NCBI GenBank assembly: GCA_035545275.1 | Contig: DASZYT010000001.1 | Location: forward strand, 6,143-70,142 | From: Candidatus Saccharimonadales bacterium | GTDB taxonomy: Bacteria; Patescibacteriota; Saccharimonadia; Saccharimonadales; UBA4665 | Direction of reading: 5' to 3' | DNA length: 64,000 bases | Shown here: positions 1,144 to 31,040 of the stretch, in pieces | Position numbering within the stretch: position 1 is the first letter of the stretch | Layout: each line of letters starts with the position of its first letter | Program-made: the position numbers and the translations under genes | The notes under the pieces: generated by a model | Databases searched by the model: none | What the model was told of the DNA's origin: nothing | What the model saw: only the letters and a program-made list of their open reading frames with translations

Positions 1144-1881
1144 CTAGTTTTCCTGGCGGCGCAACGTTACGGCGCCAAAGGTCAAGGCGGCAATGCAAAA
1201 GAGGGCCACGATGACCAGATCGCGCACGAACGTCCCGCTCCACGATACGTGCGTGGTTGCCTGACGCATCGCCTCTACCACGTAGGTGAGGGGGCAGACG
1301 TCAGAAATCCACTGCAGCACCACCGCCATGTGTTCGCGCGGCACAAAGAATCCGCCGATGAGTAGTTGCGGCATGATGAATGTGGGCATAAATTGTACGG
1401 CTTGATACTCAGTGGTCGCGAATGCACTCAAAAACAAACCAATCGTCATGCCCAACAAACCGGCCAGTACAGCGGAGGTAAACACCGCTCCCGTGCCACC
1501 TAATACATGCACACCCAGGAATCCCAGCGTGACGCCCACATCGATACAGCATTGCAGTATTGCCAGCGAAACGAAGGCCAGCCCATAGCCAAGCATGAGC
1601 TCGAGCTTCGTCATGGGCAGGGTCATGATGCGCTCCATAGTGCCGCCGGTGCGCTCACGCAACATGGCAATGGACGTTACCAAAAACATAGCGATGAGCG
1701 GAAAGACACCCAAAATCATCGGTGCAATACGATCAAATTGAGCCGGTTCGTCGTTGTAGACATACTTTAAGATAACAATGAGCACGCAAGGGACGAATAA
1801 TACCAAAGCCAGTGTGCGCGGGTCGTGCTTGAGCTGGCGAAGAACACGGGCGGTGGTAGCGAGGGTACGCTTGCGGTTCAT
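1144..1881 (-). CDS. ABC-2 type transporter permease
   Basis: 245 aa from ATG comp(1879-1881): MNRKRTLATTARVLRQLKHDPRTLALVLFVP..., with multiple TM helices. ATGA start/stop overlap with the ATPase gene. The longer track ORF (to 2088) overlaps the ATPase gene and is rejected. Confidence 0.8.
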   Translation of the reverse strand: MNRKRTLATTARVLRQLKHDPRTLALVLFVPCVLIVILKYVYNDEPAQFDRIAPMILGVFPLIAMFLVTSIAMLRERTGGTMERIMTLPMTKLELMLGYGLAFVSLAILQCCIDVGVTLGFLGVHVLGGTGAVFTSAVLAGLLGMTIGLFLSAFATTEYQAVQFMPTFIMPQLLIGGFFVPREHMAVVLQWISDVCPLTYVVEAMRQATTHVSWSGTFVRDLVIVALFCIAALTFGAVTLRRQEN

Positions 1882-2603
1882 GCCGGTGCTCCTTCGATAA
1901 GTTTTATAAATGCATCTTCGAGCGTGGCGGTGTGGGTGTGCGTGCGCAGCTGCGCCTCGGTGCCCGTGGCCAATATCTCTCCATCGTGTATCAGCAGCAG
2001 GTGGTCGCAATGGCTGGCCTCGTCCATGACGTGGCTGGAAATGAGCAAGGTGGTGCCGGTGGCGGCCAGCTGTTTGAAGTGCCGCCACAACTCATGGCGC
2101 AATATAGGATCGATGCCGACAGTGGGCTCGTCGAGTACCAGTAGGGGCGGACTACTGAGCAAGGCTATGGCCAGCGACAAACGGGACTTTTGGCCGCCAG
2201 AGAGGGTAGCTCCTACCTGGTGCGCTTGGGGCGTCAGACTCAATTGTTCAAGTAATTCATGAATGCGTGCTTTTGGGACACCCACCAAGGACGCAAAATA
2301 GCGCAAGTTCTCATACACCGTCAGGTCGCTATACATGGAGGGCAACTGGGTCATATATCCTACCTGTTTGCGCAGGGCATGCGAACCTGCGCGCTTGCCC
2401 AGCACCGTAACATGTCCGTGGGTCGGTTTTTGGCGGCCTACGATAGTACGGAACAGGGTAGTTTTGCCAGCGCCCGACGGGCCCAGTACGCCCACAATAG
2501 AACCGGACGGTATCGTAAGGTTTATGTCGTGCAGTATGACGGCATTGCCCTTTTTTACGCTCAACTTTTTTATCTCAACAGCGGGCTGCATTACACCTAT
2601 CAT
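1878..2603 (-). CDS. ABC transporter ATP-binding protein
   Basis: Walker A GPSGAGKTT, signature LSGGQ, Walker B LLVLDEPT, H-loop SSHV. Confidence 0.9.
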   Translation of the reverse strand: MIGVMQPAVEIKKLSVKKGNAVILHDINLTIPSGSIVGVLGPSGAGKTTLFRTIVGRQKPTHGHVTVLGKRAGSHALRKQVGYMTQLPSMYSDLTVYENLRYFASLVGVPKARIHELLEQLSLTPQAHQVGATLSGGQKSRLSLAIALLSSPPLLVLDEPTVGIDPILRHELWRHFKQLAATGTTLLISSHVMDEASHCDHLLLIHDGEILATGTEAQLRTHTHTATLEDAFIKLIEGAPA

Positions 2604-2620
2604 ACTGCTTATGGCTACAA

Positions 2621-2651
2621 CAACAAAACACCCCGGTTTCCCGGGGTGTTT
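2621..2651 (-). terminator. rho-independent terminator of the GlsB-like gene
   Basis: Hairpin ACACCCCGG-TTTC-CCGGGGTGT. On the minus strand it is followed by TTTTGTTG, about 20 nt after the stop at 2672. Confidence 0.55.
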
Positions 2652-2671
2652 AGAACATCAAACCCAAACTG

Positions 2672-2941
2672 CTAATACGTGTGCGTATGACGCGGACGCT
2701 GTAAGGCATTGAGGATTGCTACAAGCACGATTGCTCCGATAAACGACCAGAACAGCCCGCTCCAGCTAAAGGCCAGGTAAGCGCGGTCAGCACCGGTAGT
2801 CCAGTATGACAAAATACTTCCTAAGAAGGCACCAACAATTCCAATGATCATACTGCCCAATACGCCTTCACGACGTCCCATAACGGCTGCCGCCAACCAG
2901 CCTACAATTGCTCCCAGAATCAAAAATGCGATAATTCCCAT
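2672..2941 (-). CDS. GlsB/YeaQ/YmgE-family (transglycosylase-associated) stress membrane protein
   Basis: 89 aa with three Gly-rich TM helices: MGIIAFLILGAIVGWLAAAVMGRREGVLGSMIIGIVGAFLGS... Confidence 0.8.
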   Translation of the reverse strand: MGIIAFLILGAIVGWLAAAVMGRREGVLGSMIIGIVGAFLGSILSYWTTGADRAYLAFSWSGLFWSFIGAIVLVAILNALQRPRHTHTY

Positions 2942-3178
2942 ACACCTTCCTTTCGTTAGGTTCTATTGCTTACCCAGTGTCTACTTATACGTGGGTCGTT
3001 GAGGGCATGCCAAAACCGTACTCAAAGCTGTGTGAGAACTTCGGCAAGTCGTGGCACTGCGTACGTATATCTCTCTCCATCGCCTGGTCTCCGTTTACCT
3101 TACTCTTACAGCCTACGGGAATAAAAGAAGGGGGACTATAAGTTTTCTTACAACCTACTTTTACGCTGCTGACAAGTA

Positions 3179-3973
3179 TTATGTCTCTTCTCCAAGCCGA
3201 TTTTGGCTCGGGTCGAGCATGCGCGTGATGGCTGCCTGGATCTGGTCGTCGGGTGTGGCCTGGGGCGAAGGCTTTTCGCGGCGGGGCATGGGCAACCCCT
3301 TGGCTTTGCGCTCAACGAGCTGTTGGACATATTCGGCATGCTCATCGTGATAGTCATTGACATAGAAGGGGGCGCTGAACCGGTCGATAAGTCGTTGCAG
3401 AGCCTCGACTTCAGAGGGGTTCGACTTGGGCAACGGGCGCGTTTTGATGTCGCTGCGCGGCACGATCTCATCGGCAAAGCGTAGTTGGTGCAACACCAGC
3501 AGGTCGCCCGCGACGCCTAGCGCGCCGATGTGCTCTTTGCTCATGATAACGAACTGGGTGATGGCAAGCTTGTCGCTACGCACCAAGGCTTCACGCAGTA
3601 GCGCATAGGCCCGTTCGCCACCGGCGCCCGGCGTAATGTAATACGGCTTTTCGTAGTAGATAGGGTTGATGTCGCCTGGCTCGCAAAATTGCTTTACGTC
3701 GATGGTCTTGAGGTGGGGTGTGCCGGTTTGTTCCAGCTCCTGGTCGGTGAGGGTCACGAACTTGCCTGGCTCCACCTCGACGGCCCGTACGACCTCATCA
3801 GCTCTGACTTCTTCGTGCGTAACACTGCTGCGCAATACGCGGTGCACCGGTTTGCCGTCTTTCTCGGACAATTGCACAAAACGGGGCCGGGCAGAACGGC
3901 TGGCGCTATACAGGCGCACTGGCACACCTAGTTGTCCGATGGTGATGAATCCTTGCCAGCTTGCACGTGCCAT
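3179..3973 (-). CDS. ku: Ku protein (non-homologous end joining DNA-end-binding protein)
   Basis: 264 aa from ATG comp(3971-3973) with a GGGGGAG RBS. MARASWQGFITIGQLGVPVRLYSA...INPIYYEKPYYITPG...LLVLHQLRFADE is a typical bacterial Ku core, followed by a basic/Pro-rich tail. The upstream extension to 4057 is not needed. Confidence 0.85.
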   Translation of the reverse strand: MARASWQGFITIGQLGVPVRLYSASRSARPRFVQLSEKDGKPVHRVLRSSVTHEEVRADEVVRAVEVEPGKFVTLTDQELEQTGTPHLKTIDVKQFCEPGDINPIYYEKPYYITPGAGGERAYALLREALVRSDKLAITQFVIMSKEHIGALGVAGDLLVLHQLRFADEIVPRSDIKTRPLPKSNPSEVEALQRLIDRFSAPFYVNDYHDEHAEYVQQLVERKAKGLPMPRREKPSPQATPDDQIQAAITRMLDPSQNRLGEET

Positions 3974-4219
3974 TGCTCCCCCTTTACTCCAGCGTAAGGC
4001 AACGTACTTTGGTGGGCAGTGAGCAATTTCACCAATAAAGTGCTGGTGTATTGCCATAAATGTGATATAGTACGGCTACTAGAAGTAAGCTGCTAGTTGT
4101 TCCAACCTAAACGGAATCGTTCTAGACAATTTAAGTAAATGTAAGTGTTCGCGTGAGGAGCAGCTAACTGGATCAGACGAATAGGAAGGCCAGATTACCT
4201 CGGAACATGAGAGGAAAAA

Positions 4220-4507
4220 ATGGCTACAAAGCTATTTGTCGGGTCACTCCCGTATTCAACAACTGACGACGAGCTCCAAGAGCTCTTCGCTAACGTCGGC
4301 ACCGTGGTGTCTGCCAAGGTCATTTTCGACCGCGAAACCAACCGCTCTAAGGGCTTTGGTTTTGTCGAAATGAGCTCTGACGATGAAGCCAAGGCTGCTA
4401 TCGACAAGCTGAACGGCACCGACTTCGGCGGCCGCAGCCTGATCGTCAACGAAGCTCGTCCGCAGGAAAAGCGCGAGCCTCGTTCGTTCGGCGGCAACCG
4501 CTACTAA
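4220..4507 (+). CDS. RNA-binding protein with one RRM domain
   Basis: RNP-2 LFVGSL, RNP-1 KGFGFVEM, Arg/Gly-rich C-tail; 95 aa. Confidence 0.85.
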   Translation: MATKLFVGSLPYSTTDDELQELFANVGTVVSAKVIFDRETNRSKGFGFVEMSSDDEAKAAIDKLNGTDFGGRSLIVNEARPQEKREPRSFGGNRY

Positions 4508-4526
4508 TTCTATCCAAGAATTAGCT

Positions 4527-4554
4527 AAAACCGGCCCTTGTGGCCGGTTTTTTG
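4527..4554 (+). terminator. rho-independent terminator
   Basis: AAAACCGGCC-CTTGT-GGCCGGTTTTTT immediately after the RRM gene. Confidence 0.7.
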
Positions 4555-4686
4555 CTGATAAGGGTACTTTAAAAGTGACCCAGAGCCACGGTCTACAATC
4601 TTGTTTGGCTTTTAGTAAGCGTGACTAATGGTACAGAAATAACGTGCCCATTCTCACATACTAAAAACGTAAGTGTGGAGGTAGCT

Positions 4687-4866
4687 ATGGCAGACAAGAT
4701 AACATACAAAAACACCGGCGGCTTCGCTTATTTTTTGGCATTTCTGGGTGCGGCAGTGTACTACATCCAGCAGTCTAACGGAGCAGGCGAGGCGTTTGTG
4801 GCGTTCCTAAAAGCCTGTGTCTGGCCCGCCTTTTTGGTGTACGACCTGCTGCAGCATATCGCCTGA
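4687..4866 (+). CDS. small two-TM membrane protein (59 aa)
   Basis: ATG 4687 is preceded by GGAGG. Product MADKITYKNTGGFAYFLAFLGAAVYYIQQSNGAGEAFVAFLKACVWPAFLVYDLLQHIA. The track ORF starts earlier (4621) without an RBS. Confidence 0.4.
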   Translation: MADKITYKNTGGFAYFLAFLGAAVYYIQQSNGAGEAFVAFLKACVWPAFLVYDLLQHIA

Positions 4867-4905
4867 GGTGTGCCCTTTGCCTGGCTCAAGGTAGCTTATC
4901 GGGGG

Positions 4906-5625
4906 CTAACTCTCTAGGCTGGCGAATACAACGGTGCGGTTTTTAAACACGCTTTTGCCGCCCACGACGTCCCAAGTGCAGGTCATCAGGTTCAAGCCGG
5001 GTTTTCCAGGGTTGATCGGCGACAATACGGCATTCATGTCAACGTTGTCTGCCGGATAGGTTTTTTGTGAAACAACGGCGTAGACGTAAGCCTTACTGTC
5101 GCCGCGGATGATAGTAATTTTGTCACCTGGCCGTAATGTGTGCAGACTATAGAATATACCGCCGGTACCCCAGCCGGCGACATGCCCGTCTATAAACATC
5201 GCTCCTGGCTGCCCTGGCTTGGCGCTTTTGTCGTACCATCCGGTGTCGTAGCTTGACCCCGGCGTAGCTATATGGCCGTCACTTAGTACACCAAGCGCCA
5301 GAACACGTACCTTTTCGATGCCCAACTTGGGGATACTGATATATCTCGGCAACGTCGGGGCGACACGATAGCTCTCGACTTGCTGCCTAGACGGTTTTGC
5401 GATAGGGGCGGGTGCCTGCACTTCGCCTGGGCTCAGCACCTGCACGATTGGAGGCGGTGTTGCGTTGGACTCATGGCGCCATAATGCAATCGCCTCAGCG
5501 CCCATGACTAGCCCGGCAAGTATGAGCATACATGCGATCACTCTAGCGCTAGATGCGTGGCTTTTCCTGCTCACATACAACCGCGGCATAGGGCTTACTG
5601 ATGCTTGTGTTTGCGGTTTTGCCAA
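4906..5625 (-). CDS. sortase-family transpeptidase (class E/F-like), membrane anchored
   Basis: N-terminal TM helix, His in FIDGHVAG, and a catalytic Cys in LNLMTCT (TLxTC-type). The start is ambiguous: 5625 overlaps the upstream gene by 31 nt, and ATG at comp(5587-5589) is the alternative. Confidence 0.7.
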   Translation of the reverse strand: MAKPQTQASVSPMPRLYVSRKSHASSARVIACMLILAGLVMGAEAIALWRHESNATPPPIVQVLSPGEVQAPAPIAKPSRQQVESYRVAPTLPRYISIPKLGIEKVRVLALGVLSDGHIATPGSSYDTGWYDKSAKPGQPGAMFIDGHVAGWGTGGIFYSLHTLRPGDKITIIRGDSKAYVYAVVSQKTYPADNVDMNAVLSPINPGKPGLNLMTCTWDVVGGKSVFKNRTVVFASLES

Positions 5626-7292
5626 AGCACAGTCAGGCCGGCTCCAATCGCTCCAAGGGCCCCTATACCTAGAGCCTCGACGATTGGGTTAGGAAAGTTG
5701 CGTGCTACATAGCTGGTATCGGGGGCGGCCGGAGCCGACACAACCGTTAGGACAACGTCATTGCCAGTACTTCCCTTGTAGGAGATCTTAAACGTGTCGG
5801 CGCCGACTTTGAAGGTCGCGCCTTCTGCCAGACCGGTGAACGTACCAGTTACGGCGTCAGAGCCGTCGTTTTGGATAATCGTGTAGCTTTCTCCGGTCTT
5901 GGGAGCGTAATTGTTGTAGAGGCTGACGTTTAGGGCGCCTGAAATGCTCACGGTACCGGTAACATTTATCTGGTCATAGCCGCTACAGGCTGTCGTACCG
6001 CCAATCTGGAATGCGTATGATCCATTGAGTGTCAGGTTGCCAGAGGCCAAGCATCCCGGGCTGTGTCCGGGCGCTACGGTACCACCGCTGTTAACGGTCA
6101 GGGCGCCGACTGAACCGGAACCTTCTAGGGTACCCCCGCTGGCAACCGTTGTGTCTCCCTGTACGCCGTCAACCGAAACTGCATATGCGCTACCGATGTA
6201 TAGGTTTACGTCGGGATGGTTACCGGTCAATGTCTTGCTGACCACTGCCGGATTGTACGTGCCGTTGCTCATGCTTGATGTATTGTTACTGCTATCGACG
6301 ACCAGTTTGCCGCCATATGTGACTCCGGGCAGCGTGAATTTGTGCCCGCCGCTAAACGGTCCGGTCAGCGTGGTTGTCGTAGCTTTGCCGCCAAACGTAA
6401 CGTCGGTTGACAGTGTTATGTGCCCAGTCAGTGTAAAGGCTTGGTCGGAAGTAGCCGCACTATATATGACCCCATTGAACATGCCGCCGAAGCACACCGA
6501 TCCGACCCCAAGCTTCGCGGTTGGTTCGAGGCCAGAAGGGTAAGAGCTGGCTCCGCTCAGAGTAATGTCGTTCGAGAACGTCGCAGCTCCTAGTGCACAT
6601 CCGCCCACGCCAAGGCTCGCACCGTCGCCGACAGTCAATGACGCCGTACCGACTGAGCTGGAAGTAGCTGCGCTCAACACTCCCGAGGTCGCGTCGATCG
6701 TGCCGCTAAAGGTACTGCCCGTCCCCGAGAAACTGACACTTCCCCCGTAGAGGGTGTCGTCACCGGTGGTTGTGATGTTACCACTGCCGGCGATAGCTCC
6801 CGTAAACATCAGGCCGCCATGTCCCGCCGCCAGTGTGGGGTTGCCTGCAAACGTCAGGCTGTTATCAAATCGCAGTGGGTTGGTTAGCGTGGAGTCTGTG
6901 CTGGTGGTGGTGTTAGAAATATTCCCCGTAATGGTCAGTGCATCCCCGCCAATATTCAGCCCGAAAAAGTCGCCGGTACTGCCACCATTTGGCCACGTGT
7001 TTGCGCCGCTAAATGTAATATTGTTGACGCTCAGGCCGCTCAGGTCGTTATTCAGGGTCGCGTAATCCGTTCCTAGGGCAGATATCGGGAAGACCAGACT
7101 GTCTCCGTTTTGCGGTACGGTGCTGCCGCAACTACTCCAGTTGGCAGAGTCACTAAAGGTCGCCCCGTCCCCACCCCCGGTCCAGGTACAGTTATTCCCG
7201 GCGGCGAAAGCCGTCCCGAGGTTGACAAACATCAGCGAATACACGCCCACGACCAGCGAGGTGCTGATGTGGAGCAATCTCCGAATTTTCAT
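5595..7292 (-). CDS. large secreted Gly/Thr/Ser-rich beta-helix surface protein with PATR-like (autotransporter-associated beta-strand) repeats and a C-terminal anchor
   Basis: Signal peptide MKIRRLLHISTSLVVGVYSLMFVNLGTAFA. The C-terminal module ..GGTLEGSGSVGALTVNSGGTVAPGHSPG..YDQINVTGTVSISGALNVSL..G.FTG.. is PATR-like. It ends in a hydrophobic helix plus QNRKHKHQ. Confidence 0.7.
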   Translation of the reverse strand: MKIRRLLHISTSLVVGVYSLMFVNLGTAFAAGNNCTWTGGGDGATFSDSANWSSCGSTVPQNGDSLVFPISALGTDYATLNNDLSGLSVNNITFSGANTWPNGGSTGDFFGLNIGGDALTITGNISNTTTSTDSTLTNPLRFDNSLTFAGNPTLAAGHGGLMFTGAIAGSGNITTTGDDTLYGGSVSFSGTGSTFSGTIDATSGVLSAATSSSVGTASLTVGDGASLGVGGCALGAATFSNDITLSGASSYPSGLEPTAKLGVGSVCFGGMFNGVIYSAATSDQAFTLTGHITLSTDVTFGGKATTTTLTGPFSGGHKFTLPGVTYGGKLVVDSSNNTSSMSNGTYNPAVVSKTLTGNHPDVNLYIGSAYAVSVDGVQGDTTVASGGTLEGSGSVGALTVNSGGTVAPGHSPGCLASGNLTLNGSYAFQIGGTTACSGYDQINVTGTVSISGALNVSLYNNYAPKTGESYTIIQNDGSDAVTGTFTGLAEGATFKVGADTFKISYKGSTGNDVVLTVVSAPAAPDTSYVARNFPNPIVEALGIGALGAIGAGLTVLWQNRKHKHQ

Positions 7293-7338
7293 TATTTTTT
7301 ACCTTTTCTTTTAGTACTTAGATAACGCTTATGCTATG

Positions 7339-7367
7339 ACTATAGTCATGCCTCTTAAGATAGTCAA
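7339..7367 (-). promoter_or_regulatory. sigma70-like promoter of the surface-protein/sortase operon
   Basis: On the minus strand: TTGACT (7367-7362), 17-nt spacer, TATAGT (7344-7339), about 45 nt upstream of ATG 7292. Confidence 0.45.
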
Positions 7368-7446
7368 ATGCATTCCTATGCCGCTCCGCTTACCAGGTTT
7401 AGCCTTGATATCAAAAAGCCCATCACTACGGACGGGATCCTTTGTT

Positions 7447-7530
7447 TGGAGGGCCAGGAGGACAATCGCACGGCTGCAGCCGTACTCGGAACAAATTCCT
7501 GCGCGTGGCTTTGCCGACCGAACCCTCGAC
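7447..7530 (-). pseudogene. partial copy of the 3' third of tRNA-Lys with a 56-nt insert in the T-loop
   Basis: On the minus strand: GTCGAGGGTTCG (7530-7519, identical to the tRNA), then a 56-nt insert (7518-7463), then TCCTCCTGGCCCTCCA (7462-7447). The last segment is the tRNA 3' end including CCA, 15/15 identical, with one T-stem nt missing. There is no 5' acceptor strand. Confidence 0.4.
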
Positions 7531-7707: not shown

Positions 7708-7785
7708 ATGAGACAAACCTGGCGGTTTTTCTCATCGCGCCGGACGGCGAAATGAATTCGCCGACTCGGGCTGCTCTTTTCCCTC
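7708..7785. repeat. copy 1 of a ~78-nt two-hairpin intergenic repeat family (lies in the tRNA-Lys 5' leader)
   Basis: ATGAGACAAACCTGGCGGTTTTTCTCAT CGCGCCGGAC GGCGAAATGAATTCGCC GACTCGGGCTGCTCTTTTCCCTC. Near-identical modules occur at 30909-30982 (inverted), 56909-56984, and partially at 54633-54673. Confidence 0.6.
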
Positions 7786-7841: not shown

Positions 7842-8088
7842 GGGGTTGAGGCCAAACTTGGCTCTAGCTAACTTTTTTAAAGAACCGGCGTTTGCGCTTA
7901 ATGAATACCCCATTTAGCATATCGCTGCTAAAGCCGGGTGGTACCTTGTGGGTTGCGGCGTAATAGTAGAGGAGCCGTCCTATCCATCGGCCAGTTCATC
8001 TTCGACGCCCTCTGTCCCCACCGACAAGTCGCCCACAGACTAACCGTCACTATCTGCTCGTTGATCCACTGTTTGGTACAATGTTGAG

Positions 8089-8901
8089 GTGAAATTACTG
8101 AACGGCAAAGAGCTTGCTGGTTATATCAAAGAACGCCAGGCGCACGAAGTGCGTGCCTTGCGCCAGGCGCAGCACGTCTTTCCGAAGCTAGCCATCGTGC
8201 AGGCCAAAGACGACCCGGTCATCAATACGTACGTGCGCCTCAAGAAGCAGTATGGCGCCGATATCCTGATAGATGTCGATATCCACCGGGTAGAACAAGC
8301 TGACATACCGGCACTGCTAGAAAAACTTAACGCCGATGACTCGGTGCATGGCATCATTGTGCAGCTGCCATTGACAGACCCTGCGCAAACCGACGAGATT
8401 GTGAATCTCGTTACGCCTGATAAAGATGTGGACGCGCTTGGTAAGGAAGCTCAGTTCGACCCCGCCACGCCGATGGCTATCATGTGGTTGCTGTCCGGAT
8501 ACAACGTAGACTTGCAGGGTAAACACGTGCTACTGATTGGACGGGGCAAGCTGGTGGGCGCACCGCTTGAGAAAATCTTCCAAAGTTCTGGCATTGATGT
8601 GCACGTAGCCGACCGCAAGACAGCTGACCTTAAAGAAGAGACGTTAGCTGCCGACATCATTATCACCGCCACAGGCAGGCCTGCTATCTTATACTCCGAC
8701 ATGGTCAAACAACGCGCCGTGGTGGTGGATGCCGGTGTGGCCAGCGAAGACGGCAAGACCGTCGGCGACTTAGCGCCAGAAGTATATGAGCGCGACGACC
8801 TCACCATCACGCCACAAAAGGGCGGGGTAGGGCCGCTGACCGTCTGTGCCCTGTTTGAGAACGTCATCCGCGCAGCGCGGCGTACGACCGGCCATGAGTA
8901 A
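8089..8901 (+). CDS. folD: bifunctional methylenetetrahydrofolate dehydrogenase / methenyl-THF cyclohydrolase
   Basis: GTG start. MKLLNGKELAGYIKERQ..., VHGIIVQLPL, LLIGRGKLVGAPL, GGVGPLTV; typical FolD length (270 aa). Confidence 0.9.
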   Translation: MKLLNGKELAGYIKERQAHEVRALRQAQHVFPKLAIVQAKDDPVINTYVRLKKQYGADILIDVDIHRVEQADIPALLEKLNADDSVHGIIVQLPLTDPAQTDEIVNLVTPDKDVDALGKEAQFDPATPMAIMWLLSGYNVDLQGKHVLLIGRGKLVGAPLEKIFQSSGIDVHVADRKTADLKEETLAADIIITATGRPAILYSDMVKQRAVVVDAGVASEDGKTVGDLAPEVYERDDLTITPQKGGVGPLTVCALFENVIRAARRTTGHE

Positions 8902-9466
8902 TCCCGATAGATATCGTGAGGCTATCAACCGGACTTCCGTGTGGGAGCATGACCACACCATATTGAATAGCGGGCTGCACAGCTACGACAAAGCACACAT
9001 GGAGCGGCTGGCTGGGTATTTTAACGAATACGCACTGGTCATGAGCGGCGTCAAAGATGTCTTGCGCGAACGTCGAGCCCGTGTAGTAGTAGGTATGCCG
9101 AACGGCATGCCCGACCTTTTACGCCCCATGGTTTACCGGCCGGACTTCCTAACCGTCCAGGCTACAAAGGTCGCGTCACGCAAGTTCGACGTCATGTATA
9201 CCGATGTGCCGGTGGTGCGCAGCGCAGAAACGATATGCGTGATTGAAGATGTAGTTACCACCGGCGGTACGCCGGCCGCCATGGCAGATACGCTGCTCGC
9301 AATCAATCCTGATATAGAACTACACTTGCTGACAATATTGCAGCGGGGCGAGCTTGATCCTGCACATCTTGCACGGTTTGCGTCCTTTACTGCCCTTGCT
9401 GTTGACTTGCGCCCTGCCTGGGACAAGCAAGATTGTCCGAATGAGGAGTGCAGGGAGGCAGCATGA
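8894..9466 (+). CDS. type I phosphoribosyltransferase (PyrE-like)
   Basis: PRPP-binding motif ICVIEDVVTTGGT. The ATG at 8894 overlaps the folD stop (ATGAGTAA). Substrate is not determinable from sequence alone. Confidence 0.65.
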   Translation: MSNPDRYREAINRTSVWEHDHTILNSGLHSYDKAHMERLAGYFNEYALVMSGVKDVLRERRARVVVGMPNGMPDLLRPMVYRPDFLTVQATKVASRKFDVMYTDVPVVRSAETICVIEDVVTTGGTPAAMADTLLAINPDIELHLLTILQRGELDPAHLARFASFTALAVDLRPAWDKQDCPNEECREAA

Positions 9467-10110
9467 AAATAGGCGTCTTTGATTCGGGTATCGGCGGCCT
9501 CAGTGTGGCCCGGGCCATCGAAAAAGCCCTCCCAGAGCATGAAATGATATTCGTAAACGACGCCGAGCACGTGCCCTATGGCTCCAAAAAACCGGACGAG
9601 ATCCTCGGCTACGTGGTGCCTATTTTACAGAAGTTAGTAGACGGTGGTTGCCAGGTAATCGTGATTGCCTGCAACACGGTTACGACCACACTTATCACGG
9701 AACTACGCGCACACATATCGGTGCCGCTCGTGGCCGTCGAGCCCATGGTAAAGCCCGCCGCCGAACAGACTAGGACCGGGGTGATTGCTGTTTGCGCCAC
9801 GCCCGCCACGCTCGCCAGCCAGCGCTACGGCCAGCTCAAAGCAGAGTATGCGAAAGACATCACAGTCGTTGAGCCGGACTGCGGTGATTGGGCATTCATG
9901 ATTGAGCACCAACAAGTTGACGAACGAGCAATACAAGCGCGCATCCAGGAAGTGCTCGACAAACGTGCCGACGTCATTGTGCTGGCTTGCACCCACTACC
10001 ACTGGATTGAAGAACTTATCAAGCGCCTTGCGAAAGATAGGGCTGATATCATTCAGCCAGAGCAAGCCCTCATCCGCCAACTCAAGCGAGTTTTGACACA
10101 GCTAGCTTGA
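9463..10110 (+). CDS. murI: glutamate racemase
   Basis: MKIGVFDSGIGGLSV, IACNT (Cys1), LACTHY (Cys2). ATGA overlap with the upstream stop. Confidence 0.9.
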   Translation: MKIGVFDSGIGGLSVARAIEKALPEHEMIFVNDAEHVPYGSKKPDEILGYVVPILQKLVDGGCQVIVIACNTVTTTLITELRAHISVPLVAVEPMVKPAAEQTRTGVIAVCATPATLASQRYGQLKAEYAKDITVVEPDCGDWAFMIEHQQVDERAIQARIQEVLDKRADVIVLACTHYHWIEELIKRLAKDRADIIQPEQALIRQLKRVLTQLA

Positions 10111-11383
10111 ACTGGTTGCCGCGGTCCTTGTAGTTTTTGAACATGTCAAAGCTGGCGCACGCAGTCGATAGCAGAACGACATCACCGGGCTGGGCAGCCT
10201 CTTTGGCTTGGTTGACGATTCCCGCCATGGTTTTGGCGCCCTCGACGATATTTGTAAAATGAGCACTGCGAAGTGTATCGGCGATGACCGGCCCACGCTC
10301 ACCGATGGTGATAACGGCGCGCACGTTACTCTGGGCTATGGTTTGAGCAAGCTCATCAAACGAGGCGCCCTTGTCGGAGCCGCCCAAAATCACTACCTTC
10401 GGTTCCTCGAACGCCTGGATGGCAACCATGGCCGTTTCGGGCGTGGTGCCGAAGCTGTCGTCATAATATTTCACCCCGCCAACTTCCCGCACGAACTCCA
10501 GCCGGTGCTCCAGCCCACTGAAGCTTGTGAGCACCGAGCGGATGGCCGGAACATCTTGGGTTACCTGCCAAACTGCGGTGACGGCAGCACACACATTCTG
10601 CCAGTTGTGTTGCCCCAACAGTTTGAGCTCACCGGTGGCGCAGATTATCTGCCCATCCATTACGATATCGGCGCCTTCCATGTGCGCGCCAGGCGCTTCA
10701 TAGTAGGGGATTTTGCGCCCCTGGCCGGCGCTGGCAATCTGTGTGGAGTATTCATTTCGGCTGAAATACACCGCGATCTCATCGGCGGATTGCCAGTGAA
10801 ACAGCTGCTCCTTGGCAGTAAAATATTCGGCCACACTGCCGTGCCAGTCCAGATGTTCTGGCGCTATCATCAGGCACACGCCAATATGCGGGGAGGTTTT
10901 GAGGTCGATAAGCTGGACATTGGCGAGCTCCAGCACGACCCAATCCTCAGACTTGATGCCGTTTTTTAGTAGCTCTAACGCTGGGATGCCGATATTGCCG
11001 CCCAAGTGCACGCGCTTGCCGGCTGCTTCCAGCATCTTTGCTACCAGCGTGCTAGTGGTGCCTTTGCCCTTGGTGCCGGTGACGCCGATGATGTTTTTGG
11101 TGGGGCAGACGCGGAAGAATTCGTTGGTGCCCGAGGTAACCTTGGCCAGGATATCCGGCGAGTTTGCTTTGACAATCTTCAGCGGATGCAGGCCAGGGGT
11201 GCGTACCAGCACATCGAACCGGTCCAGATTGTCCAGATAGTGCTCACCCAGCTGAGAGGCTACGCCCTCCGGTACGGCCAGATCGGCCTTTTGGTCGCAG
11301 ATGGTCAGCTCATCGCCGCGGGCCTTGAAATACTCGAACGAAGCCCGGCCCTCTACGTCAAAACCAAGCAGCGCGACCTTCAT
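10082..11383 (-). CDS. murD: UDP-N-acetylmuramoyl-L-alanine--D-glutamate ligase
   Basis: IGVTGTKGKGTTSTL P-loop and Mur ligase middle/C-terminal domains; 433 aa. Its 3' end overlaps the murI 3' end by 29 nt (convergent). Confidence 0.9.
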   Translation of the reverse strand: MKVALLGFDVEGRASFEYFKARGDELTICDQKADLAVPEGVASQLGEHYLDNLDRFDVLVRTPGLHPLKIVKANSPDILAKVTSGTNEFFRVCPTKNIIGVTGTKGKGTTSTLVAKMLEAAGKRVHLGGNIGIPALELLKNGIKSEDWVVLELANVQLIDLKTSPHIGVCLMIAPEHLDWHGSVAEYFTAKEQLFHWQSADEIAVYFSRNEYSTQIASAGQGRKIPYYEAPGAHMEGADIVMDGQIICATGELKLLGQHNWQNVCAAVTAVWQVTQDVPAIRSVLTSFSGLEHRLEFVREVGGVKYYDDSFGTTPETAMVAIQAFEEPKVVILGGSDKGASFDELAQTIAQSNVRAVITIGERGPVIADTLRSAHFTNIVEGAKTMAGIVNQAKEAAQPGDVVLLSTACASFDMFKNYKDRGNQFKLAVSKLA

Positions 11384-11388
11384 GATGG

Positions 11389-11772
11389 CTAATCTTTCAG
11401 TTTCTTTTGTACCAGTTCGGCCACCTGCCGCGGGGTCATGTCGGCTTTCAAAATGACAGCACTCACACCCAGCGTCTTTACCTGGGGCGGGATTTCCTGC
11501 TCGCCCTTGTTGGTCAATATCACTACCTTGATATCTTTGCCCCAGGTGGTCTTGCGCAGCTCAGCCAGCATTTCATCGCCGTTCATCTCGGGCATCATCA
11601 GGTCCAATAGAATGATGTCGGGCTTCATATTTTTGCACAGTTCCAGCCCAAGCTTGCCATTTTCGGCGGTCTCAACAGTAAAACCTTCCGCCTCAAACTT
11701 GAAGCGGTACATTTGGCTAATAGCCGGATCATCCTCAATAATCGCAATCTTGTACGCAGCCATATTACTCAC
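11389..11772 (-). CDS. stand-alone response-regulator receiver (CheY-like)
   Basis: IIEDDP acidic pair, phospho-acceptor context ILLDLMMP, LTN(K) and conserved K. 127 aa, no output domain. Confidence 0.85.
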   Translation of the reverse strand: MSNMAAYKIAIIEDDPAISQMYRFKFEAEGFTVETAENGKLGLELCKNMKPDIILLDLMMPEMNGDEMLAELRKTTWGKDIKVVILTNKGEQEIPPQVKTLGVSAVILKADMTPRQVAELVQKKLKD

Positions 11773-11787
11773 ATTCTAGCACAGGCG

Positions 11788-12909
11788 TTATAAGAGATCC
11801 TTGGCCAAAGTCTCCAGTATAGCCAAGCCGCGTTCTAACGTATGTGGGTCCGTGCCATACGACAGGCGAATATAGCCATGCAGCTGTGAGAATGCCCGGC
11901 CGGCTACCACGATCAGCCCATGTTCAGTCGCGCGATCTACAAACTCCGTATCTGTTAGGTCGTGGGGAGCTTTGACGAAAGCATAATACGCGCCTTGGGC
12001 GCCCTGAACCGAATAGCCAGCCTTGCTAAGCCGCTCCACCACCATGTCGCGTTTGCGCCGGTATTTGTCGATGATGTGCACGGGGCGGGAGCGCAGTGCT
12101 GCGATTGCGGCGTGTTGAGCAATAGATGAGCTGGACATTACCACGTATTGCTGCAATTCGTTGATGGCATCGATAATCTCTTGCGGGCCGGCAATGTAGC
12201 CCAGCCTCCAGCCGGTCATGGCGTGTTCTTTGGAAAACCCATTCATCGTGATGGTGTTTGGATACACGCTGCCGATGCTGAAATGTTTGCCGTCGTACAC
12301 AAAGTGCTCATAGATTTCATCTGAGATCACCAACAAATTGTGCTTCTCGGCAATTGCGGCAATGGCCTGCAGGGTAGACTCTGGGTAAACGGCGCCGCTG
12401 GGATTGTTGGGAGAGTTGATAACCACCAGCTTGGTTTTATCAGTGATGGCCGCCTCCATAGCAGCCAAGTCAGGCTGGAAGGTGGGCAGTGTAGAAACGT
12501 ACACCACACGAGCACCAGTCATGCTTGCCAGGTGAGGGTAGGGCGGGTAGTAGGGATCAAACACAATTACTTCATCGCCAGGGTCCAGTACGGCCAAATA
12601 GACCAGCAACTGGCCCGTAGTAAGCCCAGGCACGACAGTTATAGCTTCCGGCGCACATAGAATGTGGTTTTCATCCCGCAGCTTGGTAGCCAGCAGCTCC
12701 CTCAAGCGCGGTAGCCCATTGGAGGGGGTGTAGGTGGTTTTATTCTCTAAAATGGCGCGAATACCGGCCGCTTTGACGTGTTCGGCGGTAAATTCCTCAG
12801 GTACCCCGATACTAAGGTCTACCGGGTCTACCAGGCTGGCCTGCTTTTTGATGGCTTCGCGGAAGTCGCTGCTATCGAAGTAACCGACTCTTTGGGCTAT
12901 AAATGACAT
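11788..12909 (-). CDS. class I/II pyridoxal-phosphate aminotransferase (aspartate/aromatic type)
   Basis: NSPNNPSGAVY and the PLP-lysine motif FSKEHAMTGWRLGY; 373 aa. Confidence 0.85.
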   Translation of the reverse strand: MSFIAQRVGYFDSSDFREAIKKQASLVDPVDLSIGVPEEFTAEHVKAAGIRAILENKTTYTPSNGLPRLRELLATKLRDENHILCAPEAITVVPGLTTGQLLVYLAVLDPGDEVIVFDPYYPPYPHLASMTGARVVYVSTLPTFQPDLAAMEAAITDKTKLVVINSPNNPSGAVYPESTLQAIAAIAEKHNLLVISDEIYEHFVYDGKHFSIGSVYPNTITMNGFSKEHAMTGWRLGYIAGPQEIIDAINELQQYVVMSSSSIAQHAAIAALRSRPVHIIDKYRRKRDMVVERLSKAGYSVQGAQGAYYAFVKAPHDLTDTEFVDRATEHGLIVVAGRAFSQLHGYIRLSYGTDPHTLERGLAILETLAKDLL

Positions 12910-23324: not shown

Positions 23325-23399
23325 GGCCCCGTCGTCCAGCGGTCAAGACACCGGGTTTTCATCCCGGCAACCGGAGTTCGACTCTCCGCGGGGTCACCA
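23325..23399 (+). tRNA. tRNA-Glu (anticodon TTC), CCA encoded
   Basis: Hand-folded 75 nt: GGCCCCG TC GTCC AGCGGTCA AGAC A CCGGG TTTTCAT CCCGG CAAC CGGAG TTCGACT CTCCG CGGGGTC A CCA. Confidence 0.95.
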
Positions 23400-23400
23400 A

Positions 23401-23435
23401 AGAAAGAGTCCGAGCAAAGCTCGGGCTTTTTCTTT
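23401..23435 (+). terminator. rho-independent terminator directly after tRNA-Glu
   Basis: GTCCGAGC-AAA-GCTCGGGC followed by TTTTTCTTT, with an A-rich 5' flank. Confidence 0.65.
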
Positions 23436-23487
23436 GGTCATCCGGAATGCTTGGCTTCGGATGCCGGTGGCGGCAAAGCCGACACGA

Positions 23488-23576
23488 GGCAACCGAGTTC
23501 GATAACTAGGAACGCGCGCAGGAATTTATTCCGAGCACGTGACGACGGTATACAACGTACTCTCGCGGGGTCACCA
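23488..23576 (+). pseudogene. partial copy of the 3' third of tRNA-Glu with a 56-nt insert in the T-loop
   Basis: GGCAACCGAGTTCGA (23488-23502; tRNA has GGCAACCGGAGTTCGA), 56-nt insert (23503-23558), then ACTCTCGCGGGGTCACCA (23559-23576; tRNA has ACTCTCCGCGGGGTCACCA). Each T-stem strand has lost one nt, so 4 bp still pair. Confidence 0.4.
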
Positions 23577-23578
23577 GT

Positions 23579-23610
23579 AAAAAAGGATCACCATCGGTGG
23601 TCCTTTTTTA
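23579..23610 (+). terminator. terminator after the tRNA-Glu partial copy (A-run before, T-run after)
   Basis: AAAAAAGGATCACC-ATC-GGTGGTCCTTTTTT. Confidence 0.6.
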
Positions 23611-23752
23611 CTGCTCGCAGAGAACTGAACTCCGGAGGAGTTCGTTCACAAAGGCCACGCGCAGCTGCTTGCAGCCAGCCGGCTTATCTGGCTACCCTCA
23701 GCGGGGATACAGAGAGTAGAAAATTGATTTTTAGACGCTTTATATTACTATT

Positions 23753-28719: not shown

Positions 28720-30900
<2,181 letters not shown>

Positions 30901-30908
30901 TATAATAC

Positions 30909-30982
30909 GAAAAGAGCAGCCGGAGCAGCCGAATTTATTTCGGCTCACCGCGCGATGAGAAAAACCGCTAGGTTTGTCTCAT
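30909..30982. repeat. copy 2 (inverted) of the two-hairpin repeat family, between the 48-nt direct repeats
   Basis: Reverse complement: ATGAGACAAACCTAGCGGTTTTTCTCAT CGCGCGGTG AGCCGAAATAAATTCGGCT GCTCCGGCTGCTCTTTTC. Hairpin 1 differs from copy 1 by one nt. Hairpin 2 has a different but still complementary stem. Confidence 0.6.
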
Positions 30983-30992
30983 GGTGTTCTAT

Positions 30993-31040
30993 GGTAAGGG
31001 CACCCGTAAGCTCAACGTCTCCTTCGCTCCCCTCGAGAAA
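30993..31040 (+). repeat. direct repeat copy B (displaced pcrA 3' end followed by CGG TAA)
   Basis: 48/48 identical to 30844-30891. In frame it would end ..APLEKR*, whereas the expressed gene ends ..APLEKLS*. Confidence 0.9.

Follow-up and report, generated by a model that had tools for sequence, protein, structure and literature searches.

What stands behind the tRNA-Glu(UUC) gene of a Candidatus Saccharimonadales bacterium, where a terminator is followed by a spare copy of the tRNA's own T-arm and 3′ end, and this copy is split by a foreign insert? The gene lies in a stretch of 64,000 nucleotides (assembly GCA_035545275.1, contig DASZYT010000001.1, positions 6,143 to 70,142 of the forward strand), hereafter the window, whose coordinates are used below. 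The source genome (G000) measures 904 kb in 23 contigs, with 53% G+C, 45 tRNA genes and an estimated completeness of 100%. We found that the unit behind this tRNA is an ordinary member, accompanied by a decayed neighbour, of a large gene-less family of ‘tRNA-linked modules’ of ~130-185 bp in Saccharimonadales. The origin of these units by insertion at the T-loop-to-3′-end of tRNA genes is well supported by comparison of sequences between related genomes, and the account of them that we favour, at somewhat better than even confidence, is that of an inserted, structure-dependent module that is moved in trans and yields RNA as a by-product. An earlier note, made from the sequence of the window alone, had listed a layout of tRNA, terminators, T-arm copy, 56-nt insert and tail; all of these elements were found in place, together with others that complete the anatomy of the locus:

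23325-23399, forward strand: intact tRNA-Glu(UUC), the host of the unit, with the T-loop TTCGACT (ARAGORN; 56.5 bits with the Rfam tRNA model).
23400-23437, forward strand: terminator 1, which is palindromic and includes both an A-tract and a T-tract; its outer arms pair ACCA of the tRNA with TGGT, and a terminator scan located its hairpin at 23410-23424.
23455-23497, forward strand: stem P1, predicted in the minimum-free-energy and centroid folds, CTTCGGATGCC (23455-23465) pairing with GGCAACCGAG (23488-23497).
23472-23480, forward strand: the mini-hairpin GGCAAAGCC, which caps P1.
23488-23502, forward strand: GGCAACCGAGTTCGA, a sense copy of tRNA positions about 44-58 with one G missing, ending in the family-invariant GTTCG.
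23495-23548, forward strand: the class-A core, consisting of an outer stem, a conserved internal loop and the inner hairpin GGAA-TTTA-TTCC (59.7 bits with covariance model R1).
23503-23558, forward strand: the 56-nt insert, which splits the spare T-arm copy between T-loop nucleotides 57 and 58.
23559-23576, forward strand: the tail ACTCTCGCGGGGTCACCA, that is, the last 19 nt of the tRNA (ACTCTC-GCGGGGTCACCA) minus one C.
23577-23611, forward strand: terminator 2, recognised by reading the sequence, with a stem that includes GATCACCA, a sequence resembling the 3′ end of a tRNA-Glu.
23612-23710, forward strand: a second, decayed older unit (R1 33.4 bits, E = 1e-6; also seen in its alignment to the first unit and in a tail match).
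23627-23644, 23638-23690 and 23694-23710, forward strand: parts of the decayed unit, namely P1 (gaactccgg/aggagttcg), a degenerate class-A core and the decayed tail ACCCTCAGCGGGGATAC.

The arrangement recurs in the source genome far beyond chance. Behind 17 of its 45 tRNA genes stands a copy of at least the last 14 bases of that gene, ending 132-185 nt downstream, and all 17 follow a common plan: the tRNA, a terminator-like palindrome, often a stem in which the 5′ strand of the T-stem recurs in sense orientation as the 3′ strand, with GGTTCG at its end, then an insert of 40-87 nt, and a tail comprising the last bases of the T-loop, the 3′ strand of the T-stem, the 3′ strand of the acceptor stem and NCCA. 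The inserts belong to several classes. Class A accounts for 9 matches to the covariance model, 1 decayed copy and 2 further units (Ser-UGA and Tyr) with a longer inner hairpin; class B is present in 4 copies and class C in 2, and a fourth class was seen in relatives. GGTTCG is kept even beside tRNAs with TTCAA (Leu-GAG, His). Units are unevenly distributed over T-loops in this genome, being present at 15 of the 28 tRNAs with TTCGA vs. 2 of the 17 others (Fisher p = 0.0099), and no module follows the tmRNA gene of the window. The earlier note had taken the insert behind tRNA-Glu to be homologous to one behind tRNA-Lys in the same window, and this is borne out by the core CGCGCAGGAATTTRTTCCGAG, which occurs twice in the window against 0.00 expected occurrences (100 shuffles).

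Searches with the covariance model identified a class-A core in 95 of the 151 sampled genomes of the order, spread over most of its families, with up to 27 cores per genome. A same-strand tRNA precedes 89 of 106 class-A cores within the fetched upstream stretch, at a distance that is 63-106 nt in nearly all cases. The tails of class-A units begin at tRNA position -18 or -19. Along the 3′ strand of the T-stem they match the tRNA with an identity of 0.93-0.97, a value reduced to 72% at the terminal CA by the fact that about a fifth of the tails are cut short. The T-loops of the hosts of 80 class-A units with an adjoining tRNA are TTCGA (73), TTCAA (5) and TTTGA (2), a count that overstates the preference because related genomes are not independent. 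Rfam 15 returned only tRNA and tmRNA above the gathering threshold in the window, and nothing credible on 14 unit loci at E ≤ 1; our literature searches found no description of the family, and an exact look-up of a neighbouring protein, aimed at near-identical strains, gave no record.

The conserved part of the class-A insert is a folded one. The covariance model was built from an alignment of 14 class-A cores, in which two helices surround a conserved internal loop, with 93.5% of the cells paired and 0 of 500 shuffles as good. A joint covariation check of the kind that the earlier note had called for, extended to 104 distinct copies, gave 95.2% of cells paired in the class-A hairpin and 298 double-sided changes, with 0 of 500 shuffles equal; this larger alignment was fitted to the model, which favours structure, and the hand-independent 14-sequence alignment agrees with it. 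When the 3′ partners in the 104 copies are slid by 1-3 columns, pairing falls to 23-38%. Such strong covariation of the core hairpin indicates that the folded strand is under selection. The internal loop consists of a C.A mismatch, N-N′, C-G and RCA opposite GA, and the invariant letters of the core are the C.A mismatch, the C-G pair, RCA opposite GA, a G-C pair and GGTTCG, the last being nearly invariant in 106 copies. On the sense strand, G.U pairs outnumber A.C mismatches (37 vs. 21), a mild sign that the sense strand is the folding one, either as RNA or as single-stranded DNA. A kink-turn was considered for the internal loop and rejected by eye, as no tandem G.A pairs remain when the columns are paired in the register that covaries (30-34 with 51-55 of A3).

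Outside the core, pairing is less regular. The earlier note had pointed to a compensated T-stem in the tRNA-Glu copy as an indication of selection on RNA structure. One base is indeed missing from each T-stem strand (CGGAG...CTCCG in the tRNA, CGAG...CTCG in the copy), both deletions falling in two-base runs, and the compensation holds for this copy; it is, however, not a rule of the family, because 53 of the 69 class-A units with an adjoining tRNA have a 5′ T-stem copy that departs from the tRNA and few of the copies look compensated (2-3 of the 11 units altered on both T-stem strands, judged by eye). Besides the tRNA-Glu copy, the likely compensated cases are L092 and the tRNA-Arg(UCG) unit of genome G156 (AG:CT changed to GG:CC), whereas the tRNA-Lys unit of the window has lost one C without compensation. 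Most T-stem copies retain just GG beside TTCG, so that 3-4 pairs are possible. Moreover, the 5′ strand, which the earlier note had paired with the 3′ strand of the T-stem copy, is predicted to pair with the upstream segment instead (CTTCGGATGCC with GGCAACCGAG, in P1); GGCAACCGAG repeats, in sense orientation, the variable loop of the tRNA and the 5′ strand of its T-stem. P1-like stems are present in further units of the source genome, and their order-wide support is weak: a general tRNA-specific P1 stem was rejected as marginal (mean 6.2 vs. 5.99 in permuted controls, sd 0.12), as was an ‘acceptor’ helix between the 5′ segment and the tail (mean 4.44 vs. 4.25 in permuted controls, sd 0.10, z about 1.8).

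Evidence of how the units arose comes from comparison of filled and empty loci within one genus (genomes G060, G156 and G120). At tRNA-Glu(CUC), G060 has the tRNA, a terminator, a class-A unit and its tail. G156 has, in addition, a block adjoining the tRNA that consists of an exact 22-nt repeat of the tRNA end (TCGATTCCCCTCGAGATCACCA), a new terminator and a different insert, and the unit behind this block is identical to the G060 unit in 134 of 146 bases (92%). As the extra block stands in front of the unit common to both genomes, the newest unit is the one that adjoins the tRNA. The outer tail of G156 (TTTCCCCGCGCGGTCAC) matches the tRNA allele of G060 and not the one that G156 has at present; tails are therefore fossils, preserving the tRNA end as it was when the unit was inserted. 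At tRNA-Leu(UAA), a unit is present in G060 and absent in G156, the single terminator of which resembles the second terminator of G060. Across the tRNA-Glu loci of 19 other genera, the units are patchy (absent also in the closest relative, G001) and belong to differing classes. Tandem or decayed outer units were found at 23612-23710 of the window and at L099 and L057, and a direct repeat of the 3′ part of the tRNA flanks the inserted DNA in the source genome as it does, over exactly 22 nt, in G156. Displacement of older elements outward by newcomers at tRNA sites is known from tycheposons (bioRxiv 10.1101/2020.12.28.424599).

These comparisons also bear on the parts of the tRNA-Glu locus. Judging from the new terminator that comes with the new unit in G156, terminator 1 is the tRNA-proximal part of the inserted unit, and we read the tail at 23559-23576 as duplicated target sequence. 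Terminator 2 most likely belonged to the older unit and adjoined the tRNA before the present unit was inserted. Compared by hand, it matches the terminator directly after tRNA-Glu(CUC) in G156, a genome of a different family, except for one inserted base; this terminator, GTAAAAAAGGATCACCATC(A)GGTGGTCCTTTTTTACTG (23577-23611 of the window; L057 of G156), thus differs by one base across two families and two tRNA-Glu isoacceptors, and stems of the form CTCACC...GGTGGG occur in several further tRNA-Glu terminators.

The earlier note had suggested independent short transcripts that end in a tRNA-like NCCA tail. This suggestion is not supported. No promoter-like site was found between terminator 1 and the unit, so that any RNA of the unit must come from read-through; terminator 2, which had seemed to provide the unit with its own end, would be present because the inserted DNA parted the tRNA from the terminator that had until then stood behind it; and the NCCA end is truncated in about a fifth of the relatives. 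No credible open reading frame was found in the 212-nt unit either.

Judging from their sequences, the Saccharibacterial units are built like the tRNA-linked repeats (TLRs) of Escherichia coli, the internal anatomy of both being the link that is new here. E. coli has 22 such repeats at ten loci, each ending in 18-19 nt of the upstream tRNA or 5S RNA, and three are enclosed by dual terminators, their RNAs arising by read-through and being bound by Hfq and CsrA (PMC8144298); the repeats go back to Egan & Landy (1978) and Rudd (1999), as cited in PMC8144298. The units of the E. coli tyrV locus (NC_000913) measure 178 bp and contain CTTCGACCAAGGTTCGA, which corresponds to the variable arm, the 5′ T-stem strand and TTCGA, then a 67-nt hairpin-rich insert, and then AATCCTTCCCCCACCACCA, 19 nt of the tRNA end. 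The T-arm copy is split after GGTTCGA, between nucleotides 57 and 58, and further upstream stands GGGGAAGGAT, which is antisense to the beginning of the tail; the annotated RttR RNA begins 7 nt after tyrV, and its end coincides with the CCA of the first tail. Both groups are located directly downstream of a tRNA on the same strand, have tails of 18-19 nt, form tandem arrays, can have the dual-terminator layout and split the spare T-arm at the same 57/58 point. The inserts, in contrast, are unlike in sequence and structure: on the tyrV-rttR locus, scores with the class-A model do not exceed 4.5 bits, and we accordingly rejected homology of class A to the E. coli insert, the architecture alone being common to both. 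The two also differ in density (ten loci in 4.6 Mb vs. 17 of 45 tRNA genes in 0.9 Mb here), and the Saccharibacterial family stands apart through its at least 4 interchangeable insert classes, its highly conserved internal loop and its visible gain and loss between species.

Two further groups of elements share some of these traits. Integrative elements that target tRNA genes, such as tycheposons, likewise leave a direct repeat of the 3′ part of the tRNA that starts in the T-loop, build up in tandem and are present or absent among relatives; the units here, however, measure only ~150 bp and have neither integrase nor cargo, their repeat is preceded by a covarying hairpin inside a spare T-arm, and no excised or phage-borne form was found among the IMG/VR matches listed. 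A T-loop class of integrase sites was reportedly distinguished by Williams in 2002. Short length, lack of genes, hairpin formation, multiple copies and a patchy distribution link the units described here with Rickettsia palindromic elements, REP/BIME and Correia elements, which likewise persist without an evident transposase. To our knowledge, however, these small palindromic repeats are not specific to tRNA 3′ ends and have no target duplication of 18-22 nt, and the Y1/RAYT-type transposase that is linked to REP was not found in the source genome.

In the account that we favour, a unit would enter by recombination at the T-loop-to-3′-end of a tRNA gene, so that the last roughly 18-22 bases of the gene would stand twice, once in the working tRNA and once in the tail, and the terminator formerly beside the tRNA would be pushed outward by the new unit. 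Because new units enter beside the tRNA, older ones would shift outward and decay, as at 23612-23710. The join would fall between T-loop nucleotides 57 and 58, the enzyme would act in trans and be encoded outside the source genome, and the conserved hairpin would be recognised on a folded single strand by the inserting enzyme or by a processing enzyme. A read-through RNA of the unit very likely exists, by analogy with E. coli RttR, because the unit lies within the transcription unit of the tRNA. A wider proposal, drawn from the same analogy, is that the Saccharibacterial modules and the E. coli TLRs are products of one widespread mechanism that opens the tRNA gene or transcript between 57 and 58, installs a structured cassette and duplicates 58-76, the released RNAs being mimics of the T-arm and acceptor that engage tRNA-processing enzymes. 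This might proceed through a host enzyme, by structure-specific recombination on folded single strands, or through insertion into an RNA that is then copied back into DNA; we consider the proposal as a whole unlikely.

Several results weigh against insertion by an enzyme acting in trans. The sole tyrosine recombinase of the source genome is Xer-like, with the Xer domain pair, and neither a serine recombinase nor an IS110 transposase, a Y1 transposase or TnpB was found in that genome. Large serine recombinases (PF07508) are present in 101 of the 151 sampled Saccharimonadales genomes, with up to 9 per genome, vs. 2 of 14 control genomes, but they do not track the modules: the module-rich genomes G000, G026, G036, G060, G064 and G067 have none, whereas G074 and G015 have 4-5 and no class-A core. 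No free or phage-borne copy was found among the matches listed in IMG/VR, where 0 of 80 to the class-A pattern score with the model. Many copies of the source genome have tRNA-specific sequence both in the sense copy ahead of the insert and in its pairing partner, for which a simple attP/attB model cannot account. The unit common to G060 and G156 is 92% identical beside tRNAs that are 87% identical and flanks that cannot be aligned, which hints at selection in place and thus at a function beyond mobility. Finally, cargo was never seen inside a unit.

The search for a mover gave further results. No recombinase gene was found inside or beside the unit. The sole reverse transcriptase of the source genome (C6:45788-46855, outside the window) best matches retron type VI (PADLOC RT_VI, E = 7e-66). 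Matches listed for the class-B pattern in IMG/VR were chance matches to GC-rich coding sequence only. Large serine recombinases were rejected as the mover, since their presence does not follow the modules and the recombinase of the one island examined is part of another insertion, which pushed an old tRNA copy aside. This island was encountered among the 17 of 106 cores without a same-strand tRNA in the fetched upstream stretch; for most of these cores, an NCCA remnant of 8-10 nt or a decayed pseudo-tRNA is all that precedes the terminator of the unit, and in those loci that were inspected the tRNA and the unit are kept apart by other DNA. At locus L062 (G120 C1:45000-58400), two divergent tRNA-Met genes lie 6.0 and 3.7 kb from their class-A units, a decayed pseudo-tRNA stands just before the terminator of each unit, and the intervening islands are, in coordinates of that locus:

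1356-7464: an island of 6 kb, with a 551-aa large serine recombinase, whose reading frame abuts the tRNA and runs into the antisense of the tRNA 3′ end, and with sugar-modification genes.
8075-11900: an island of 3.7 kb, without a recombinase.

Judging from this layout, the islands entered between tRNA and unit and form a separate layer of traffic at the same sites; the 3′ ends of tRNA genes in this order are busy integration sites.

The main alternative is a gene for a functional small RNA, of the RttR or tRNA-linked-repeat type, transcribed by read-through of terminator 1 or as part of a tRNA operon, released by tRNA-processing enzymes through mimicry of the T-arm, acceptor and NCCA, and acting through the class-A loop, for example by binding a protein, in which case insertion would explain only the origin of the copies. 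The E. coli repeat at tyrT/tyrV has the same build and its RttR ends exactly at the CCA of the first tail; the related rrA/B/F RNAs, made by read-through between dual terminators, bind Hfq and CsrA (PMC8144298). The strong covariation of the core with its invariant internal loop, the excess of G.U over A.C on the sense strand (37 vs. 21) and the 92% identity of a unit common to two species amid unalignable flanks are all as could be expected of an RNA gene. In units located between co-transcribed tRNAs (L044, L070, L089 and the Thr-to-Gly unit of G000), the first hairpin has no 3′ T-run, and such units are therefore certainly within the transcript. At the one such locus inspected closely, L062 of G120, the unit cut off from its tRNA by the 6-kb island has kept 18 of 18 tail bases while the neighbouring pseudo-tRNA decayed. 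On the other hand, no promoter was found, the tail is truncated after the T-stem strand in about 20% of the units, outer units decay, the fold of the whole tRNA-Glu unit is no more stable than shuffled sequence (z = -1.0), pairing of the upstream segment with the tail barely exceeds the control (z about 1.8), units are patchily distributed, and any of four insert classes can occupy one and the same position. We regard a functional RNA gene as possible but rather less than probable; it is compatible with origin by insertion.

The remaining explanations account for fewer of these results. If the units were relics of gene-carrying islands or prophages, that is, attachment-site arms left after deletion of the interior, the partial tRNA repeats that islands do leave at these tRNAs and the abundance of large serine recombinases in the order would be explained, but not the discreteness of the units, whose tRNA-to-core distance is 63-106 nt in nearly all adjacent cases, unlike random deletion end points. 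Nor would double-stranded arm sites be expected to give covarying hairpins; the islands that were inspected lie upstream of the unit's own terminator and not within the unit, and 17 relics without a matching integrase in the genome are implausible, so that we consider this origin quite improbable. A guide RNA for an RNA-guided recombinase or nuclease (of the bridge RNA, seekRNA or OMEGA type), in which the tail and an antisense segment read the two strands of the tRNA gene, could account for a structured scaffold between a 3′ sense tail and, in many copies, an antisense segment, and for a tail that equals the DNA adjoining the insert, as in OMEGA guides. However, IS110, TnpB and Y1 genes were not found in the source genome, Rfam gave no match, order-wide tRNA-specific antisense segments are weak or absent, and 17 guides beside their own targets without a partner gene would make no sense; this reading is very improbable. 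Least credible of all is a cis-regulatory switch (an attenuator or T-box-like element) for a downstream gene: although GGCAACCGAG is common to two alternative pairings, P1 and the 4-bp T-stem, a full terminator stands behind the unit, with the decayed second unit next, units precede unrelated genes, other tRNAs and contig ends, and the tail is sense, not antisense, to the tRNA.

The family matters on several counts. In a minimal, host-dependent bacterium, over a third of the tRNA genes carry a conserved folded module, and its construction is common to the E. coli TLRs, which have been unexplained since 1978; two far-apart lineages would thereby be linked, with hundreds of natural variants on offer. 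If the modules are mobile, they would represent a mechanism of insertion without an element-encoded integrase; if they are RNAs, the Candidate Phyla Radiation (CPR) would have in them an abundant, uncatalogued RNA family, the sharply conserved loop of which would bind protein or RNA. In both cases, tRNA 3′ ends would be the main sites of genome change in these organisms, and the units break assemblies.

Assembly breaks are visible among the best 150 class-A matches, about a dozen of which have a contig start within 300 nt, the breaks lying just upstream of units. Other observations concern the make-up of individual units. The class-B inserts behind Lys-UUU (C9) and Met (C15:1408) of the source genome are equal in about 50 of 54 bases by hand count, and the stems upstream of them differ; conversely, the Arg-GCG and Met units of that genome have a stem-interior motif (tagagatttt..aaaat) in common and different insert classes. 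Parts of units thus seem, from these sequences, to be exchanged independently. At L109 (G036 C5:7399-8002), a tRNA-Asn tail is split at the boundary of the T-stem strand and the acceptor strand by a hairpin of ~31 nt, GCCTGCCCGTCTTGTCAGTCAGACAGGCGGGC, a nested small insertion. At L063 (G120) and L050 (G060), both behind tRNA-Met(CAU) with a TTCAA loop, a first terminator is absent, so that the class-A core directly adjoins the tRNA, and behind the core stands an unsplit 32-nt copy of the whole T-arm-to-CCA; the copy in G120 is a mosaic, the left half corresponding to the G060 allele and the right half to G120's own, with the boundary in the T-loop.

The window contains another small repeat family: at 30844-31040, the last 48 bp of a coding gene are directly duplicated, and a 101-nt insert of this family lies between the two copies; a further copy of the repeat stands just upstream of tRNA-Lys (7708-7785). 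The arrangement at 30844-31040 bears the same signature of an insert with a long target duplication, at a protein gene.

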